From: a virus
Lineage: Duplodnaviria; Heunggongvirae; Uroviricota; Caudoviricetes
Virus record (IMG/VR): IMGVR_UViG_3300031413_000001
Length of the DNA: 64,000 nucleotides
Reading direction: 5' to 3' (one strand)
Part shown: in pieces, positions 4,228-39,369 of the stretch
Position numbering within the stretch: position 1 is the stretch's first letter
Layout: every line of letters begins with the position of its first letter
The notes under the pieces: generated by a model
Told to the model about the DNA's origin: nothing
The model's database searches: none
Seen by the model: only the letters and a program-made list of their open reading frames with translations
Position numbers and translations under genes: made by a program

Positions 4228-4508
4228 GAAAACAACTTGTCGGAAATCTTCTTAATCTGGGCGAGCTCGCGTTCGCCCAGTTTTTCTACCTGTGGACGGA
4301 ATTTGGCTTTGAATCGCTCCGCAGCCTCACCATCGAGGGCCAACAAGTCGTAGCCCTCTTCACGTAGGTGTTGAATGATTGCCACGGCAAATATGGGACT
4401 CTTTCCCATATCACTTACCATGGCATCCATTATGGGTTCGGGTTGCTCCTCACCCCTTGTCAAGGCTTTCGCGGTAGCCACGATTGCCTTGATTTTGTCA
4501 CTGTCCAT
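4224..4508 (-). CDS. Hypothetical protein
   Basis: ORF in gap of head operon, helical composition; ATG at 4508. Confidence 0.55.
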   Translation of the reverse strand: MDSDKIKAIVATAKALTRGEEQPEPIMDAMVSDMGKSPIFAVAIIQHLREEGYDLLALDGEAAERFKAKFRPQVEKLGERELAQIKKISDKLFS

Positions 4509-4560
4509 GCCCAACGCGGTTACTCCTAGGCATTACTCTTACTGGCACCAATTGTAAAAA

Positions 4561-5031
4561 TCAACCTGCGCGCTGGATTGCGATGACCTTCTTCAGACGG
4601 TCGCTGGCGCCATCGGTGTCGATGTCGCTCTGGGGTGCGGATTCCCGCGTGTCGCTGCTGATCACCTTGCGGGTGGAAGCCTTTCGAGCAGCCGGCTTGG
4701 CCTTTTCCACCGGTTCAGGACGCGGCTCTGCGACGACGACCACGCACTCGTAGTCAAAGGTGTTCTTGATCAGCGCAAACGTGGTTGCCTGATATTCCGC
4801 CGGATCACGCTTGGTGCGGTCGGGATATTCGGCGAAGAGATGATTGAGCGCATCGGTGAAGCCCTCGCCATCGGTAAATGACCACCGCTTGAGCTGCATC
4901 AGGTAGCGGACCACCGCCTGTGACTCGATATCGTCCCGTGGGCCCATCTGCAGATGTGTGAGAAAGGCAAGATCCCCGGTTTCGAGGAACTCCTTTACGT
5001 CACTGGCCAATGCTAGGTTAATTGCTACCAT
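4561..5031 (-). CDS. Hypothetical protein (early)
   Basis: RBS AAGGAG upstream and sigma70-like promoter at 5053-5080. Confidence 0.7.
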   Translation of the reverse strand: MVAINLALASDVKEFLETGDLAFLTHLQMGPRDDIESQAVVRYLMQLKRWSFTDGEGFTDALNHLFAEYPDRTKRDPAEYQATTFALIKNTFDYECVVVVAEPRPEPVEKAKPAARKASTRKVISSDTRESAPQSDIDTDGASDRLKKVIAIQRAG

Positions 5032-5052
5032 ATACGATCTCCTTAGTTGCCC

Positions 5053-8523: not shown

Positions 8524-9936
8524 ATGGATAATGGATTGAATTCGCTTCTAGAGTCGGGTCTTCTCAATGAGGACACAAAAACTGCTCTAGAGGAAGCCTG
8601 GAACGCAAAGCTGGACGAGGCTCGTGCTTCTCTTCGTGAAGACGTTGAGGCACAGGTTCGCGAAGAGTTTTCGGTTCGCTTTGAAGCAGACCGTAACGAC
8701 CTAGTTGAAGCAATGGACCACATGCTTACCGATGCTGTCAAGCAGCACGCGGTTGAGTCGGTGGCTTCCACTAAGGCTCTCAACGAGGAGCGCACCAAGC
8801 TAACACAGGCCATCAAGGAGGCTCGCGCCACCTACAAGGCTAAGACTGCCGGTCATCTTCAGATGATGGAGCAGTTTGTGATGAAGCAGTTGGCAGAAGA
8901 GATCAAAGAACTCGCTGCCGATCATCGCGCAATGCAGGAACAGCGCGTTCAGCTGGCAACACAGATCTCGGAGAACAAGGCGTTCTACGAAGGTCAGCTG
9001 GCAGAGCACGCAAACAAGCTTCAGCAGTTTGTCATGACCAAGCTCTCGGAAGAGATTGGCTCGGTTAAGGCACAGGAAAAGAAGCTTGCAGAAGCCAACG
9101 TCGCTAACGCGAAGAAGCTTCGTGAACACCGCATTGCGATGAACGAGCAGACTGCTGCACGTATCAACAAGGTCGAGAGTTTTGTTCTCGAGCAGCTCAG
9201 CAAGGAAATTGGCGAACTCAACGAGGACAAGAATGCACTCGTCGACGCCCGTGTCCGCCTGATTGCAGAAAGCAAGACCAAGCTGGAAGAGACCAAGAAG
9301 GCATTCATCGCTCGCGCAAGCAAGCTGGTGGAGAGCACGATTGATTCTCAGATCCGCGGCGAACTCACCCAGCTGAAGGAAGACATCCAGGAAGCACGAA
9401 ACAATATGTTTGGTCGCCGACTGTTTGAAGCTTTCTCTGCAGAGTTCATGACCAGCTACTTGAGCGAAGGTTCGGAAGTCCGCAAGTTGCAGACGCAGCT
9501 ATCGGAATCCGCAAAGCAGCTCAATGCAGCCAACGAGATTCTGGCCGAGAGCAAGGCAGAGGTCCAGGCAAGCGCACGTCGCGCAAAGCTGGCCGAAGAG
9601 CGTGCTCAGCGTGTCCAGATTAAGAACGAACTTCTCTCCCCACTAAGTAAGGAGAAGAGGAACGTGATGGAAAGCCTTCTCGATACCGTGAAGACAGATA
9701 AGATGAAGGAAGCATTCCAGAAGTACCTTCCAACTGTCCTCAATGAGGGCATGAGGAGCGCAAACCAGGGTCGTCGCACGCTGTCTGAGACTGCTGCCGA
9801 ACCTACAAAGACGGTAGCTGTAACTGGCAACCGCGTCAACCCACTTGCTGAATCTGCCCGCGCGGAGGAAGTTGCTGTGAATAGGTCCTCGACCGAAATT
9901 GCAGAGCTACGCCGACTGGCTGGAATTGAAGAATAA
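8524..9936 (+). CDS. gp22: Prohead scaffolding protein (T4 gp22-like)
   Basis: Coiled-coil between protease and capsid; FGRRLFEAFSAEF; many L-x-E sites. Confidence 0.85.
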   Translation: MDNGLNSLLESGLLNEDTKTALEEAWNAKLDEARASLREDVEAQVREEFSVRFEADRNDLVEAMDHMLTDAVKQHAVESVASTKALNEERTKLTQAIKEARATYKAKTAGHLQMMEQFVMKQLAEEIKELAADHRAMQEQRVQLATQISENKAFYEGQLAEHANKLQQFVMTKLSEEIGSVKAQEKKLAEANVANAKKLREHRIAMNEQTAARINKVESFVLEQLSKEIGELNEDKNALVDARVRLIAESKTKLEETKKAFIARASKLVESTIDSQIRGELTQLKEDIQEARNNMFGRRLFEAFSAEFMTSYLSEGSEVRKLQTQLSESAKQLNAANEILAESKAEVQASARRAKLAEERAQRVQIKNELLSPLSKEKRNVMESLLDTVKTDKMKEAFQKYLPTVLNEGMRSANQGRRTLSETAAEPTKTVAVTGNRVNPLAESARAEEVAVNRSSTEIAELRRLAGIEE

Positions 9937-33356: not shown

Positions 33357-33424
33357 TTTCAATTTAGTCAAAGAAAGAGTTGGTTCACCTAGCGTTTAAC
33401 ACCAGTGTCCTTTCGCAAGTTGGA

Positions 33425-33430
33425 TAAATA
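33425..33430 (+). promoter_or_regulatory. Late promoter core TAAATA (sheath)
   Basis: 38 nt upstream of ATG 33469. Confidence 0.7.
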
Positions 33431-33468
33431 CTGACAACGAAATCCACCATTTGCGAAGGGGCTGGAAC

Positions 33469-35880
33469 ATGGTATATCCTCTAGTGTCGCCAGGTACATC
33501 AGTTACCGTAACCGACGAATCCTACTACGCATCGGCTGGCGAAGGCACTGTTCCGCTGATCATCATCGGCACCCACGAATACAAGACGCTTCCTTCGGGT
33601 GGCGGTGTGGCAGAGGGAACCCTGCCGGAGAACGCGAACAAGCTGTATCCTATCACAAGTCAGCGCGAACTCCTCCAGACCTTTGGTAATCCAATTTTCT
33701 ACAAGAAGAACGGCACTTCCGTTCACGGCTACGAGCTCAACGAGTTTGGTCTCCACGCTGCTTACCAGTATCTTGGTATTGCAAATCGCGCTTATGTGAT
33801 TCGCGCTGCGATCGACTATGCTCAGCTGATGCCAAAGGCAACTGCACCACGTGCAGAAGCTGCTCACGGTACCAACTGGCTCGATACTGCCAACAACACT
33901 TGGGGTATCTACGAATACTCGGGTAGCGAGTGGATTGAGCGTGATCTCTATGTTGTCGAAGGCAGTGACCTGGACAGCAATCTTCCTGCTGAAAGCGAGC
34001 AGGTTGCTGGTCAGAAGCCACCGGTTGCAAACCTTGGCCTAGAGAATGACCTGGCAATGGTCGTCGCATATTCCAAGAAGACTCTCTACCAGAAGGCTGG
34101 CGGAGCATGGTTGGTTGTTGGTGGTGATGCTTGGGCAGCGGCAAAGGCCGCAAGCCAGGGCGGAACTGCACCAAGCCTAACCTACAACGCTTTCCGTCCT
34201 GAGACGGCAACTGTTGGTGACATTCTCGTTCTCGAGACTCCAGCGGTTGTGACTTCGATCTCCTCGGCAGCTACTTGGTTGCTGAAGACATTCAACGTCA
34301 GCAACGGTTCTTGGACTGAGACTCTGGTCCCCATTTACAGCACCGGCAAGCAGAGCACGCTGAGCAAGACCACTGGCGCAGTTTATCTGAGCCACGAACC
34401 AAAGACTGCGGTATTTGAGTTCCGCAAGTATGATGGTTCGGCATGGGTTGGTCTTGGTGAGGAAGTAAGTTCCGACGAGCCAACGAGCGATCCAGAAGAG
34501 GGCACGCTTTGGTACAACAATGCCAACATCGTGGTCAACATCAAGGTTGCTGCAAGTGATGGTACTTGGGTTCCCTATCGTAGCCTCCACACTGCCACTG
34601 ACATCAACGGTGTCATCCTCGCAGGCAGTGCACCAACCAGCCAGAGCACTGGTGCTCCACTGGTTGAGAACGATCTGTGGGTTGACACTTCCGATGCAGA
34701 GAACTTCCCCAAGATGTTCCGTCGCACGAAGAATGTCTGGAAGGCAATCAACACTGAGAACAACATTGACGCAGTCGATGGTATTGCTTTTGGTGAGTCT
34801 TCGACAACCAGCGCACTGAACTTTGCTACTGGCATGAAGCTGTTCGATCTTGAAGCATCGACCAATGACGTCAAGCAGTATGTGGGTGGACGTTGGACCA
34901 ACGTTTCGGGCTATCAGCAGAATGGCGTTCCATTCTTTGGTCGCAAGGCACAGAGGCAGATGATTGTTACCCAGCTTGCTGGTACTCTCTCCAGCAACGA
35001 AGACATTCGCGCTGAAACCATCTACTTCAACCTCCTGGCAGCACCTGGCTACATCGAGTTGATCGATGAAATGGTAACGCTGAACACCGACATGAAGGAA
35101 GTTTCTTTCATCGTTGGTGATACCCCAGCACGCTTGAAGCCAACTGGCGTTGAGATTCAGAAGTTCGCAACCAATGCTGCCAACGGCAACACTGAGCAGG
35201 GCGTCTCGACTTTCAACCCATACGTTGGTCTCTATTACCCATGGGGCTTGAGCACCAACGTTGATGGCGCAGAGATCATGGTTCCACCGAGCACGATTGC
35301 TCTCAGGACCCTGGCCTACAATGACAGCATCAGCTATCAGTGGATGGCACCAGCTGGTTTCACCCGTGGTCTGGTCACCAACGCATCGAGCGTGGGTTAC
35401 TTGGACGATCAGGGTGAGTTCAAGGCAGCGATGCTGAACAACGGCCAGAGGGATCTGCTCTACAATAACAAGATCAACCCAATTGCGTACATTCCAAACC
35501 GTGGTCTGGTTGTCTATGGTCAGAAGACCAGGCACAACTTGGATACCTCGCTGGATCGTATCAACGTTGCACGTTTGATCAACTACCTGCGTTACAACTT
35601 GGACAACATCTCGAAGCCATTCCTCTTTGAGCCAAATGACTTCCAGACGCGTGATTCGGTCAAGACGACCTTTGAACGCTTCCTCGCTGATCTTGTGGGC
35701 CTTCGCGGTCTATATGACTTTGTGGTTGTCTGCGATGACTCCAACAACACGCCGGAACGCATCGACCGTCATGAGCTGTGGGTGGATATCGCTATCCAGC
35801 CGGTTCAGGCAATCGAGTTCATCTACATTCCAGTCCGCATTGTGGCAACTGGTGATGATTTGGGTCAGCTCTTCCAGTAA
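33469..35880 (+). CDS. gp18: Tail sheath protein (gp18-like)
   Basis: LVSPGTSVTVTDES, WMAPAGFTRG, NKINPI, LDRINVARL, FLFEPND, EFIYIPVR. Confidence 0.95.
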   Translation: MVYPLVSPGTSVTVTDESYYASAGEGTVPLIIIGTHEYKTLPSGGGVAEGTLPENANKLYPITSQRELLQTFGNPIFYKKNGTSVHGYELNEFGLHAAYQYLGIANRAYVIRAAIDYAQLMPKATAPRAEAAHGTNWLDTANNTWGIYEYSGSEWIERDLYVVEGSDLDSNLPAESEQVAGQKPPVANLGLENDLAMVVAYSKKTLYQKAGGAWLVVGGDAWAAAKAASQGGTAPSLTYNAFRPETATVGDILVLETPAVVTSISSAATWLLKTFNVSNGSWTETLVPIYSTGKQSTLSKTTGAVYLSHEPKTAVFEFRKYDGSAWVGLGEEVSSDEPTSDPEEGTLWYNNANIVVNIKVAASDGTWVPYRSLHTATDINGVILAGSAPTSQSTGAPLVENDLWVDTSDAENFPKMFRRTKNVWKAINTENNIDAVDGIAFGESSTTSALNFATGMKLFDLEASTNDVKQYVGGRWTNVSGYQQNGVPFFGRKAQRQMIVTQLAGTLSSNEDIRAETIYFNLLAAPGYIELIDEMVTLNTDMKEVSFIVGDTPARLKPTGVEIQKFATNAANGNTEQGVSTFNPYVGLYYPWGLSTNVDGAEIMVPPSTIALRTLAYNDSISYQWMAPAGFTRGLVTNASSVGYLDDQGEFKAAMLNNGQRDLLYNNKINPIAYIPNRGLVVYGQKTRHNLDTSLDRINVARLINYLRYNLDNISKPFLFEPNDFQTRDSVKTTFERFLADLVGLRGLYDFVVVCDDSNNTPERIDRHELWVDIAIQPVQAIEFIYIPVRIVATGDDLGQLFQ

Positions 35881-35892
35881 GGCAAAAACGAG

Positions 35893-35918
35893 GTGGGGAG
35901 CGGAAACGCTCCCCATTT
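35893..35918 (+). terminator. Intrinsic terminator
   Basis: GTGGGGAGCG-GAAA-CGCTCCCCAT-TT. Confidence 0.7.
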
Positions 35919-35938
35919 CCATGAGTGGCAGATTTATA

Positions 35939-35967
35939 TTGAGTGTGAGCATCAACATATCTATAAG
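35939..35967 (+). promoter_or_regulatory. Sigma70-type promoter for the non-coding region
   Basis: TTGAGT-N17-TATAAG with no protein gene until 36559. Confidence 0.55.
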
Positions 35968-35972
35968 TGAGA

Positions 35973-36505
35973 ACAGGCGCTGAGGAACGCAAGTTCCTGA
36001 ACCCATAATGCAGCCAAGGGTGACTGGGATGTGTGCTGACACATAAAGGTATTGCCCGGGTGGCTCCGGGGGTTGGCTGCAAAGCTGGAAGTGCCCAGCT
36101 AAGGTGCAACGAGGCGGTAATACTGTCTCTAGGAGTCCGGCAGCTTTTAGCTGTCTCGGGTGGTAGATAGCGGGAATGACTCCCCTGCATCCCTTTCTAG
36201 GCGCGCGTGGAAGGGGTTAGTAGTTTCGCCGGCGAGCCAAAACCGGAAGAAACGAATAAAAGCGATGGAGCAGGCCCTGGTCATCAGTCTCCGGCCTTTG
36301 GTATCGCTCTACCACCTCAGATCGAGTCCTAGCGGACGTTGACATTGGGGGGCCAAGCGTAACTGCCCCACCGGTGCGTGGAAGATGAAAGGCATAGTCT
36401 TCTGTAGGCTGGGTGTGCCAAGTACAACATCCGTTCAAACCCCGCGTGAGGGCATGGCAGACCAGTTTCCCAAGCGCACCCAGGGAGACTACGGTCTCCC
36501 TGGAC
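35973..36505 (+). ncRNA. Candidate large structured non-coding RNA (~530 nt), family not recognised
   Basis: Nested long-range helices 36009-36017/36073-36081, 36159-36167/36308-36316, 36129-36134/36327-36332, 36261-36266/36303-36308, 36409-36418/36474-36483; GCAA and cUACGg tetraloop hairpins; no credible ORF. Confidence 0.7.
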
Positions 36506-36546
36506 CCATATGACACCTTTTACTTTGACTTTTCCCAAGCCTGTGT

Positions 36547-36552
36547 TAAATA
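36547..36552 (+). promoter_or_regulatory. Late promoter core TAAATA
   Basis: Just upstream of 36559 gene. Confidence 0.5.
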
Positions 36553-36558
36553 GGAACA

Positions 36559-36858
36559 ATGGAAAAGGAAATGACCGAGGTAGAAGCGTTCTACCAAGAT
36601 GTCTCAGATCTGCTGGGCATCGAAAGCAACTACGAATACAACCGCTACACCGTTGGTGGAAAGTATTTGACCCGCTGGAACAATCGCAAGCCCGGAAACG
36701 GCCGCTTCGAGGGTTACGGCCTTATCCGGTTCTTTGGACCGGACGTTATTCACGTGGCGATCAATCATCCCATACAGATGAGTGGAAGCTACACCAGCAA
36801 GGCCGAGGTTCTCGAGGTCTTGAAAAAAGCTCTTGACGAAGGCAAAACGGCTTCGTAA
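36559..36858 (+). CDS. Hypothetical protein (alternative start 36571)
   Basis: TRWNNRKPGNGRFEGYGLIRFFG; sits between the ncRNA candidate and the Ro60 gene. Confidence 0.7.
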   Translation: MEKEMTEVEAFYQDVSDLLGIESNYEYNRYTVGGKYLTRWNNRKPGNGRFEGYGLIRFFGPDVIHVAINHPIQMSGSYTSKAEVLEVLKKALDEGKTAS

Positions 36859-36870
36859 GTAGAGCACCCA

Positions 36871-36969
36871 GGGAAGGCAACGCTTTCCCAATGGATCGAT
36901 ACAATTCCGGTCTTCATGTCAGAGACCAACCTTGCTCGTGGGTTCACGAGCCGAACTAGGAGTACGATC
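36871..36969 (+). promoter_or_regulatory. Structured leader of the Ro60 gene
   Basis: Hairpins 36871-36889, 36909-36927, 36934-36951; closing stem 36894-36898/36965-36969 encloses the AGGAG RBS. Confidence 0.4.
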
Positions 36970-36970
36970 A

Positions 36971-38653
36971 ATGAGCACCTACACCAAGGTTTTGGCTGGC
37001 GCAATCGCGCCTCAGGCAACCCCGCAGTCGCAGCCCATCCCCGGCCGTGAGGCAGAGATGGCACAGAACGCTGATGGTGGCTTCACCTTCACCATCAGCC
37101 CCTGGGATCAGCTCGACCGATTCCTGATCCTCGGAACCGAGGGCGGCACCTATTACACCAAGGAGCAGGCACTCACCGTGCAGAACGCCCAGAATGTGCT
37201 TCGGCTCATCGGGACCGACGGTGTGCGCGTGGTCAATCGTGTAGTGGAGATCAGCGATGCAGGTCGCGCCAACAAGAACGACCCCGCGTTGTTCGTGCTG
37301 GCGCTGGCTTCGGCAAGCGATGACGAGGCAACTCGTAAGGCTGCACTGGCGGCTCTCCCCAAGGTGGCTCGCATCGGCACCCACTTGTTCCACTTCGCGG
37401 CCTTCGTGGATGGAATGCGTGGTTGGGGTCGTGCGCTCAAGCGCGCTGTAGCCAACTGGTATCTCGAGATGCCCCTGGATCGTCTGGCCAACCAGGCAAT
37501 CAAGTATCAGTCGCGTGATGGCTGGTCGCACCGCGACATGCTGCGCTTGGGTCACCCCAAGGCAGACAATGCGGAGCGCGAGGCAATCCTGCGCTGGATG
37601 AGCGGTGGCATGACTGCCGTTCAGGGTTCCGACTACGTGTATGGTTCGGACGTAATGGATAACAAGGTGGTGATGCACCGCAGCAATGCGAGCAGCATCC
37701 TTCACCCGCAGATCCAGGCGTTTGAGGCTGCAAAGGTCGCAACCAAGGCATCGGAGATCATCAAGTTGATCCAGGATGCTGATCTGTCCCGCGAGGCAAT
37801 CCCCACCCAGTTCCTCAATGAGGCCAAGGTGTGGGAGGCATTGTTGCAGAACATGCCCCTCAACGCAATGATCCGCAACCTCGGCAAGATGAGCTCCGTT
37901 GGACTGATCTCGCCCATGAGCGCCGCAGAGAAGTTGGTCAAGGCCAAGCTCAGCGATGCTGATGTAATCCGCAAGTCTCGCCTCCACCCCATGGCGATCC
38001 TCTCGGCTTTTCTGACCTACGGGTCGGGCAAGGGCGTGAAGGGTTCCAATGTCTGGCCGGTGTCGCGTAGCGTTGTGGATTCCCTGGATCAGGCCTTCTA
38101 TGGTTCGTTCAAGAACGTGGTTCCCACGGGCAAGAACACCATGTTGGCACTGGACGTTTCGGCGTCCATGACCTGGGAGAACTGCGCTGGCATCCAGGGA
38201 CTGACCCCCAGGGTTGGTTCGGCTGCCATGGCGTTGATCACCGCTAACGTAGAGAGCAGCTACGAGTTCATGGCTTTTACCAGCGGCAACGGTGGCATCA
38301 GCGAGCTCAAGATCTCCCCGCGCCAGCGGTTGGACGATGTGGTCAACACCATCAATCGCATGTCGATGGGTGGAACGGACTGCGCGCTCCCCATGGTTCA
38401 CGCACTGAATGCCAAGCTGCCCGTGGAGTCGTTTGCGGTTTACACCGACAACGAGACCTGGGCTGGCCGCATCCAGCCGAGTGAGGCACTGAAGAAGTTC
38501 CGCAACAGCATGGGCATCCCTGCCAAGCTGGCCGTTGTGGGCATGACCTCGACCGGATTCAGCATTGCTGATCCCAGGGACGCGGGCATGATGGACTTTG
38601 TTGGCTTCGATGCTTCGGCACCGGCCATCATGGCAGACTTCTTCCGCAACTAA
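36971..38653 (+). CDS. rsr: TROVE-domain Ro60/Rsr RNA-binding protein with vWA domain
   Basis: RFLILGTEGGTYY, KYQSRDGWSHRDMLRLGHP, MIRNLGKM, SRLHPM, LDVSASM and TDNETW (MIDAS). Confidence 0.95.
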   Translation: MSTYTKVLAGAIAPQATPQSQPIPGREAEMAQNADGGFTFTISPWDQLDRFLILGTEGGTYYTKEQALTVQNAQNVLRLIGTDGVRVVNRVVEISDAGRANKNDPALFVLALASASDDEATRKAALAALPKVARIGTHLFHFAAFVDGMRGWGRALKRAVANWYLEMPLDRLANQAIKYQSRDGWSHRDMLRLGHPKADNAEREAILRWMSGGMTAVQGSDYVYGSDVMDNKVVMHRSNASSILHPQIQAFEAAKVATKASEIIKLIQDADLSREAIPTQFLNEAKVWEALLQNMPLNAMIRNLGKMSSVGLISPMSAAEKLVKAKLSDADVIRKSRLHPMAILSAFLTYGSGKGVKGSNVWPVSRSVVDSLDQAFYGSFKNVVPTGKNTMLALDVSASMTWENCAGIQGLTPRVGSAAMALITANVESSYEFMAFTSGNGGISELKISPRQRLDDVVNTINRMSMGGTDCALPMVHALNAKLPVESFAVYTDNETWAGRIQPSEALKKFRNSMGIPAKLAVVGMTSTGFSIADPRDAGMMDFVGFDASAPAIMADFFRN

Positions 38654-38666
38654 GACAGCGTAGAGG

Positions 38667-38691
38667 AGGGCTCGGGAAACCGGGCCCTTTT
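38667..38691 (+). terminator. Intrinsic terminator
   Basis: AGGGCTCGG-GAAA-CCGGGCCCT-TTT. Confidence 0.8.
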
Positions 38692-38744
38692 CCATGACTA
38701 CCGAGGAAGCTCTGGTAGTTAACCTTGTGCATTAATCCACCGGA

Positions 38745-38750
38745 TAAATA
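38745..38750 (+). promoter_or_regulatory. Late promoter core TAAATA (tail tube)
   Basis: 34 nt upstream of tube ATG. Confidence 0.7.
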
Positions 38751-38784
38751 ACTGGTAACAGTTTATTCTGGAGGATCGAGCACC

Positions 38785-39369
38785 ATGGCCGAGACACTAT
38801 CAAAGTTTGGCGTACCACTTGGCGGCGGCTCAGGCCGTGGTGGTCTGCTTCAGCTCAAGTACAAGTACCGTTTCCGCGTTCGCGTAATCAACTTCGGACC
38901 AATCGCCGGTGGACTTGACTTCACCCAGCAGGTTCAGAGCGCAAGCAAGCCCAAGATCAGCCACGAACCAGTGGAAGTTCATAGCTACAACAGCACTGCC
39001 TACTATGCTGGTAAGCACAAGTGGGACAGCATCAATATCACCCTGAAGGATGATATGACCAACAACATCGCAAAGATGGTTGGTCACCAGCTGCAGAAGC
39101 AGATGAACCACTTGGAGCAGACTGCATTCGCAGCCGGCATCAACTACAAGTTCGTCACCATCATTGAGAGCATGGACGGCGGCAACGACACGGTTGTTGA
39201 AACCTGGACCCTAGAGGGTTGCTTCCTCGAGAACGTTGAGTTCAGTGAACTTGAGTACTCGGAGAGTGGTTTCCAGACGGTCGCTCTGACGATTCGTTAC
39301 GACAACGCAACGCTGGCTGATGGTCTGATGACCGCACTGCCAGAGCTGATCCCAGGTCGTCGAGTCTAA
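38785..39369 (+). CDS. gp19: Tail tube protein (gp19-like)
   Basis: KYRFRVR, YAGKHKWDSINITLKDD, WTLEGCF, LTIRYDNA. Confidence 0.9.
   Translation: MAETLSKFGVPLGGGSGRGGLLQLKYKYRFRVRVINFGPIAGGLDFTQQVQSASKPKISHEPVEVHSYNSTAYYAGKHKWDSINITLKDDMTNNIAKMVGHQLQKQMNHLEQTAFAAGINYKFVTIIESMDGGNDTVVETWTLEGCFLENVEFSELEYSESGFQTVALTIRYDNATLADGLMTALPELIPGRRV

Follow-up and report, generated by a model that had tools for sequence, protein, structure and literature searches.

The DNA examined here, called the window, is a 64,000-nucleotide stretch of a jumbo myovirus with a genome of about 420 kb; IMG/VR record G001 (416,714 bp) contains the region at 99.9% nucleotide identity, and among cultured phages the closest are Sinorhizobium phage Phosso, at 469 kb, and Agrobacterium phage Atu_ph07, at 490 kb. 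The subject is the block lying between the tail sheath gene (33451-35880, + strand; 809 aa, Pfam Phage_sheath_1C at 1.1e-15) and the gp19-like tail tube gene (38785-39369, +). Sheath and tube are normally adjacent in T4-like phages, as in CBB with its gap of 106 nt, and the first-pass annotation of this DNA was right to see their separation here as an insert. The insert is bounded by terminators and holds a large non-coding RNA (35972-36510), a 99-aa open reading frame (ORF), and a full Ro60 protein with TROVE and vWA domains (36971-38653). All of these parts are present and co-oriented on the + strand, with the RNA and Ro60 within 4 kb. There are 680 bases without a gene between the sheath gene and the 99-aa ORF, and a spacer of 112 bases between that ORF and Ro60. 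ARAGORN finds no tRNA and the Rfam scan finds no family anywhere in the 64 kb, so the observation that no canonical Y RNA or tRNA is visible at the locus also stands. The annotation had gone on to propose that these parts form one Ro60 ribonucleoprotein (RNP) with the large RNA as ligand. That step is mostly not supported by the comparisons below.

The same gene order is found in 11 close relatives, 10 of them IMG/VR contigs and 1 a further metagenome contig, all being 416-465-kb genomes or fragments thereof with sheath proteins 75-99% identical. Their gaps match the window gap by nhmmer with E between 1e-37 and 1e-56. The gap was considered as a decayed gene and this is ruled out, since no ORF is shared among the relatives and one of them does not have any ORF of at least 60 aa there. 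Nor does tblastn match the gap to the neighboring small proteins of Phosso and Atu_ph07. What the alignment of relatives exhibits is a hyperconserved block, GGTGACTGGGaTGTGTGCTGACACATAAAGGTAT, together with many hairpins that change sequence and keep pairing. RNAalifold on 9 sequences of the 5′ and central domains (about 360 nt) predicts 73 pairs, of which 44 have compensatory changes; on 5 sequences of the 3′ extension it predicts 38 pairs, 20 with compensatory changes. Folded alone, the window RNA is only modestly better than shuffles (z = −2.5), hence it is the comparative evidence that carries the case for a structured RNA. Judged by sequence comparison, the gap is a genuine gene for an intricately folded RNA with its own sigma-70-like promoter.

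The putative promoter (35939-35967, +) has a −35 element TTGAGT at 35939-35944, a 17-nt spacer, and a −10 element TATAAG at 35962-35967. In the 9-sequence alignment A1, where the conserved form is TTGxxx-N17-TAtAAg, its TTG and TA never vary. The −10 is missing the T at position 6, and this presumed promoter does not appear in the list from the consensus scan. The 5′ core domain (35972-36106, +) runs in the order P2 hairpin, UGAACCCAUAA, P3, GGUGACUGGGAUG, P4, UAAAGGUA, P5, P3′, P6, and is pseudoknotted by CCCA at 36002-36005 pairing with UGGG at 36025-36028. The central domain (36107-36335, +) adds 6 further hairpins and conserved stretches GUAGUU, ACGAAUA, and GAUCG; it is common to the clade of the window and recognizable in Phosso. 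The 3′ extension domain (36345-36510, +) has as its last element a conserved hairpin, CCAGGGAGACUACGGUCUCCCUGG (36482-36505), and is without a U-tract, so the 3′ end is not defined. This extension is missing in relatives L007 and L009 and not conserved in L011 and L027.

BLASTN of the gap and 2 short members of the family described below against 50,697 phage records gave no match, and because even Phosso was not recovered, BLASTN is too insensitive for this RNA family. Exact 20-mer searching of metagenomes produced one new relative (L027) and one chance match (L026), and of prokaryote genomes nothing. Rfam scans of the window, Phosso, Atu_ph07, and 4 relatives, by gathering threshold and by E-value, gave only chance matches to terminator hairpins. 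The Phosso homologue of the RNA lies at L001 ~4270-5050 and ends in a canonical terminator. Wholly inside it is annotated Phosso coding sequence (CDS) 395 (XYS97552.1; L001:4754-4999; 81 aa, TTG start, "hypothetical protein"). CDS 395 is probably not a gene, with the consequence for annotation that at least one annotated Phosso CDS sits within an RNA gene.

A degenerate pattern made from residues common to the window and Phosso was run on IMG/VR, yielding 54 matches, 51 of them true members, with 42 distinct sequences; the invariance of the pattern residues among these is by ascertainment. The core of the family has the order P2 hairpin, UGAACCYAUAA, P3, GGUGACURGGAUG, P4, UAAAGGUA, P5, P3′, and P6 with a loop of the GAAUUNAC type, and includes about 30 near-invariant junction nucleotides. 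The pseudoknot is defined by the Y and R of the pattern, which were free to vary independently and are nonetheless always complementary: CCCA/UGGG occurs in 21 members and CCUA/UAGG in the other 21, with no mismatches. Over the 42 members, 91.9% of cells are paired as compared with 59.6% in shuffles, the covariation score is 0.823 as compared with 0.203, and sliding the pairing partners by 1-3 columns lowers pairing to about 33-46%.

A model of the core, R1, scores the window core at 113.2 bits (E = 1e-19) over all 134 model positions, a match that is partly by construction because the window is in the seed alignment. Members outside the seed (L047, L054, L060, L067, L076, L089, and others) score 43-77 bits, and exactly one copy is present in each of the 29 whole records searched. 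The same strict pattern applied to 185,579 prokaryote genomes has 11 matches, none of which passes R1; this serves as a control on the pattern and indicates that the family, as far as strict-pattern members go, is restricted to phages. The RNA is absent from the genomes of Atu_ph07, PA5oct, CBB, and T4. The family has no match in Rfam 15 and no description of it turned up in the papers searched, so it appears to be undescribed. Elsewhere in the window, at 4386-4466 (−), there is a partial weak R1 match (11.6 bits, E = 1.5) in which a hairpin precedes GAACCCAUAAUG, words shared with the start of the RNA core; a TTGACA lies upstream of it.

Among known RNAs, the new family resembles GOLLD (RF01998) and ROOL (RF03087) only in kind. 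All are large ornate RNAs with conserved pseudoknotted or junction nucleotides and variable peripheral domains, carried by phages and often beside tRNA genes, with no established protein partner or function. GOLLD and ROOL also occur in bacterial chromosomes, whereas the new family is not found in bacterial genomes or prophages by the strict pattern; its core is much smaller (135 nt), and neither Rfam model matches at E ≤ 10 in 35700-39000 or in the relatives. The short members also recall rnaC and rnaD of T4 (species 1 and 2) as small stable RNAs inside a phage tRNA cluster. These were rejected as relatives, as R1 finds nothing in the whole T4 genome and the sequences are unrelated.

Six of the close relatives have a second conserved non-coding element directly 3′ of the first RNA that is absent from the window. 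Its positions include L012:5655-5830, L005:5670-5860, L008:4945-5120, L011:4965-5140, and L027:3075-3260. It starts with AUAGAUCGAAGAGCCGAUGAUGGUGGGUUAUC, contains CUGACUCAGUAACGUGGAAACAGACUUCGGUCUGCCUAGGGAG and CCCGGUCCACC, has no Rfam match, and is preceded by a promoter of the type TTGACA-N17-TAAATAG, as is found at the small ORF. An extra gene of 215-235 aa, of no known family, lies between the RNA or RNAs and the small ORF at L008:5222-5926, L011:5279-5926, and L001:5114-5791, and is likewise not in the window.

The small ORF (36559-36858, +) is a genuine, conserved gene and encodes a 99-aa protein of an unnamed, widespread phage family with the motif RWNNRxPGNGRFEGxG. It has no Pfam or PHROG match, its Atlas matches are to viral hypothetical proteins only, and its family amounts to 222 clusters (50% identity) at E ≤ 0.001. 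Homologues are encoded directly upstream of Ro60 in Phosso and Atu_ph07; in G009, G015, and G019, the family is tens to hundreds of kb away from the RNA and from any TROVE gene. The predicted model is alpha-beta5-alpha with a predicted local distance difference test (pLDDT) score of 76.5. Foldseek finds nothing in the PDB at E ≤ 0.001. VIA-align reaches at best Z = 6.2 or lower, within the chance range, with top rows of mixed alpha/beta folds (Mediator Med17, an immunity protein, hibernation factors, and HisRS anticodon-binding domains). Prediction of a complex between Ro60 and the 99-aa protein scored 0.00, which speaks neither for nor against binding. A sigma-70-like promoter (36525-36553, +), composed of TTGACT, a spacer, and TGTTAAATAG, would serve the small ORF and Ro60 as a unit. 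The pattern TTGAC-N15-18-TAAATAG matches only there in the 64 kb, against an expectation of 0.01, and this promoter is conserved in the relatives.

Ro60, also named Rsr, is a 560-aa orthologue with the TROVE ring followed by vWA. The TROVE domain matches PF05731 at 1.7e-40 over residues 32-346 and the vWA domain (vWA_Ro60) matches PF25045 at 2e-57 over residues 390-557. A MIDAS (metal ion-dependent adhesion site) of the form DxSxS, at D395-S397-S399, is invariant among the orthologues in the clade. Against known structures, the match to Deinococcus radiodurans Rsr, PDB ID: 2NVO, is 7.6e-119 over residues 4-559, and that to 1YVP is 5.9e-111. The association of phage Ro60 with neighboring RNAs is already established (PMC4201824, PMC12135203).

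The 112-base spacer upstream of Ro60 contains a structured leader (36893-36962, +), made of GAUCGA, a hairpin at 36909-36927, a second hairpin at 36934-36951, CGAA, and a Shine-Dalgarno sequence at 36958-36962 that can pair with an upstream UCC or CCUU; the CGAA is part of a GCCGAA. In 9 relatives with Ro60 proteins no more than 70-85% identical, the roughly 70 nt of the leader are almost unchanged. An exact 18-mer from it is found only in Ro60-bearing loci of the window clade and is absent from L052 and L066, which have no Ro60 at the locus. On sequence grounds, then, the leader is the only RNA element strictly tied to Ro60. The Y-like RNAs of Thermus phage phiLo, Yrl1 and Yrl2, bind Ro60, and the definition used for them was that of a structure with CGAA lying upstream of Ro60 (PMC12135203). 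By analogy with that definition, and given its invariance and its limitation to Ro60-bearing loci, we infer that the leader is a better candidate than the large RNA for the cognate Ro60 RNA element, or for an autoregulatory operator. GAUCG(A), which contains a palindrome, recurs at 3 places, namely the 3′ end of the RNA core (36321-36325), where it is invariant, the start of the Ro60 leader (36894-36898), and the starts of the second RNA in the relatives, and could be a shared start, processing, or pairing site.

One alternative is that the partner of Ro60 is a small Y-like RNA, which might be this leader, released or acting in cis in autoregulation, or might be a YrlA-like, permuted-tRNA-like element of a tRNA array. 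Besides the position of the leader directly 5′ of Ro60 on the same strand and the phiLo precedent, this draws on full-length matches to the YrlA model (RF02553) inside the tRNA arrays of G001-G004. These elements, for example G001:C1:352715-352832 (−), which is L028:1501-1618, and others in L037 and L038, run from a T-arm through an acceptor-like stem, whose loop has ACCA, to a D-arm, and are not called as tRNAs by ARAGORN. Their scores of 31-39 bits do not reach the gathering score of 69 bits, however, and similar matches of about 30 bits occur in phages without Ro60 (G019, G007) and in control genomes. In the window itself, the YrlA model has no match at E ≤ 10 over 35700-39000, nor at E ≤ 1 over the 64 kb. 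As to the leader, its fold is weak on its own (z = −1.4), its covariation is scant because it hardly varies, and the leaders of the Phosso type are of a different sequence. We consider a small Y-like partner quite possible, at less than even odds.

The large RNA has some likeness to the Y RNAs (Yrn1, YrlA/YrlB of RF02553, and phiLo Yrl1/Yrl2), being encoded on the Ro60 strand at most 1 kb upstream of that gene, structured, and in possession of a CGAA-containing stretch. It differs in being 3-5 times larger, in having no YrlA match, no T-arm/D-arm tRNA mimic, and no conserved bulged Ro-binding helix, and in belonging to a family mostly found in genomes without Ro60. The first-pass annotation had pointed to GTCCGG (36135) and TTGAC (36339) as a pair resembling the Ro site. 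The first of these elements proves to be variable, and the second is in an insertion limited to the window and its near-identical copies. Structure predictions of the relatives found no other conserved helix closing the 5′ and 3′ ends of the long RNA. This RNA also lacks the motif GNCGAA(N0-1)G, the conserved stretch being A-N-CGAAUA without the flanking G residues.

The distribution of the 3 parts bears on whether they are one system. All 3 are present in the window clade, Phosso, G013, and G016, and the order RNA, small ORF, Ro60 is found in 13 Ro60-bearing loci besides the window, the C-terminal part of the sheath being 50-87% identical in those that were treed. The order sheath, RNA, small ORF, tube, with no Ro60 at the locus, is found in L052 and L066. 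Sheath, RNA, and tube with neither Ro60 nor the small ORF are found in L046, L051, L055, L058, L063, L068, L070, L079, L084, and L088, among which L079 is a complete 607-kb genome; the RNA in such loci is about 140-300 nt. Atu_ph07 has the small ORF overlapping Ro60 and the RNA nowhere in its 490 kb. Phages of 40-160 kb have the RNA in tRNA arrays as a unit of about 170 nt with a closing stem and U-tract, and the RNA lies no more than about 250 nt from tRNA genes on its own strand in L046, L047, L050, L056, L061, L065, and L069. One unrelated 105-kb phage, G008, has the RNA among tRNA genes 3.4 kb upstream of a Ro60 on the same strand. TROVE is absent from 4 of the 6 near-complete RNA-bearing records (G006, G012, G017, G019). 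Two further observations belong to these genomes. G015 (607 kb, with the RNA between sheath and tube and no Ro60 there) has a weak TROVE-like gene 162 kb away at C1:245866-246588, and 1.1 kb upstream of that gene on the same strand is a partial YrlA-model match of 30.7 bits, C1:247694-247757 (−). The tRNA-rich 66-kb contig L065, with a short form of the RNA, encodes a transfer-messenger RNA at 9072-9491 (+) with the tag ANDETFALAA.

A maximum likelihood tree of the C-terminal half of the sheath has 2 groups. Clade A has 15 rows, all with the small ORF, and includes Atu_ph07 without the RNA as well as L052 and L066 without Ro60; L052 is nested beside Phosso, and L066 is sister to the window clade with 100/100 support. 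Clade B has 7 rows with the RNA only. The simplest history, as reconstructed from these sequences, would have the RNA ancestral to the sheath-tube gap, the cassette of small ORF and Ro60 entering the ancestor of clade A, and thereafter a loss of Ro60 at least once or twice and of the RNA once, each without the other parts. The parts are thus distributed independently across phages, the very outcome that the first-pass annotation had named as counting against its proposal. Because each part can be retained or lost on its own in related phages, the large RNA is probably not a partner dedicated to Ro60.

These comparisons lead us to read the block as 2 separate neighboring modules, a stand-alone, trans-acting stable RNA of the new family and an accessory Ro60 cassette with its own leader, at a probability of roughly 0.6. 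Several points weigh against this. Forms of the RNA as long as 345-850 nt are seen only in clade A, which is the cassette-bearing lineage, those of clade B being about 140-300 nt; the adjacency of RNA and Ro60 is kept in 14 clade A loci over the sheath divergence given above, and G008 has both on one strand in an unrelated phage. L052 and L066 are short contigs, so that Ro60 could sit elsewhere in those genomes. Finally, action of the RNA in trans is something we infer purely by reasoning. Most of the same points could be claimed for a rival in which the 135-nt core gained its central and 3′ domains in clade A and is now a giant Y-RNA-like scaffold for Ro60, perhaps with the small protein. The co-orientation of all 3 parts in those 14 loci would suit such a scaffold, as would the ACGAAUA of the central domain, which is reminiscent of the CGAA motif in Y-like RNAs from bacteria and phiLo (PMC4201824; PMC12135203), and the RNA of G008 would have come to its place upstream of Ro60 independently. 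Against it, L066 and L052 retain the small ORF and the long RNA at a locus lacking Ro60, Atu_ph07 has no RNA yet retains the other two parts, relatives do not conserve the proposed Ro-binding helix, and co-inheritance within one clade counts as a single evolutionary event. Such a scaffold is unlikely, and it keeps the share of belief it has because the long forms and the cassette coincide on the tree.

The boundaries of the block, and the promoters in and around it, bear on a further possibility, namely that the RNA is a cis element of the late tail operon, acting in antitermination, in processing, or as a translational-control leader for the tube gene. The sheath gene ends in an intrinsic terminator read from the sequence (35891-35920, +), GGGGAGCG-GAAA-CGCTCCCC followed by TTTCC, whose hairpin is retained with compensatory changes among the relatives; the terminator scan placed this hairpin on the opposite strand. 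An Rfam match to sroE at this site was rejected as a weak chance match due to the hairpin-plus-U shape. A second intrinsic terminator, read in the same way, follows Ro60 (38668-38695, +), with the form GGGCTCGG-GAAA-CCGGGCCC and then TTTTCC. A motif search places GGATAAATA, which resembles a T4 late promoter and may function as one, before the tube gene at 38742-38750 (+). It has 2 matches in the 64 kb, where 0.13 are expected, the other being at 33422-33430 (+) before the sheath gene, and each copy is about 20-35 nt upstream of a start codon. From this placement, GGATAAATA is likely a late-promoter word of this phage group. The RNA gene and the unit of small ORF and Ro60 have promoters of the −35/−10 type, and this difference from the sheath and tube fits an insert that would be transcribed under another program than the flanking late genes.

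A cis role would be in keeping with clade B, where the core and the tube gene share a strand and the core precedes that gene by 120-200 nt, and with the retention of the position between sheath terminator and tube gene over a wide divergence. Set against that, what separates the RNA from the tube gene in the window clade is a further promoter plus 1 to 3 genes that have a terminator of their own, the tube gene has a GGATAAATA motif of its own, and in the smaller phages the core is in the closed tRNA-array unit with no tail gene adjacent. We judge a cis element of the tail operon very improbable.

In the 2-module reading, transcription of module 1 would start near 35973 from the sigma-70-type promoter and yield a highly structured transcript, with a predicted length from about 345 nt (core) to about 540 nt (with the 3′ extension). 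This module would have long occupied the sheath-tube gap across a broad range of jumbo myoviruses, and it would need no phage Ro60. Its links to tRNA arrays, a T-arm-like P6 stacked on the closing stem, and the conserved junction core suggest engagement of tRNA or RNA processing, or an activity of its own. The RNA may thus act in trans, engaging the tRNA or RNA-processing machinery of the host either as a scaffold or as a decoy; alternatively, by analogy, it may self-assemble in the manner of GOLLD and ROOL. Module 2 would be the accessory cassette acquired by clade A, with its own promoter, small protein, structured leader, Ro60, and terminator. Its Ro60 is most likely an RNA-binding ring that works with small Y-like RNAs and host exonucleases, as elsewhere, and the best candidate for its RNA element would be its own leader, as an autoregulatory operator or as a Y-like RNA. 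The core persists in a single copy, in tRNA arrays or between the tail genes, in virulent phages of very different kinds. A more ambitious proposal is that it is a new functional RNA class with its own activity, whether as a ribozyme, as a core that binds a ligand or protein, or as a particle that self-assembles, and that the clade A domains recruit Ro60 and the small protein. We are doubtful of it. If it were true, the clade A RNA with Ro60 and the small protein would be the first giant Ro60 RNP.

Phage Ro60 was already known, and the leader and small protein add new members or details; what appears to be new is the RNA family. RNA families that are large and have a complex conserved core are seldom found, and past examples turned out to be ribozymes, riboswitches, or RNA machines. 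Because at least one cultured phage, Phosso, encodes the RNA, the function of the RNA is directly testable. Furthermore, close relatives amount to a natural experiment, some having the RNA only, others the RNA plus the small protein, others the small protein plus Ro60, and others all 3. This permits a clean test of which RNA serves a phage Ro60: a large one, a small one derived from the leader, or neither of them.

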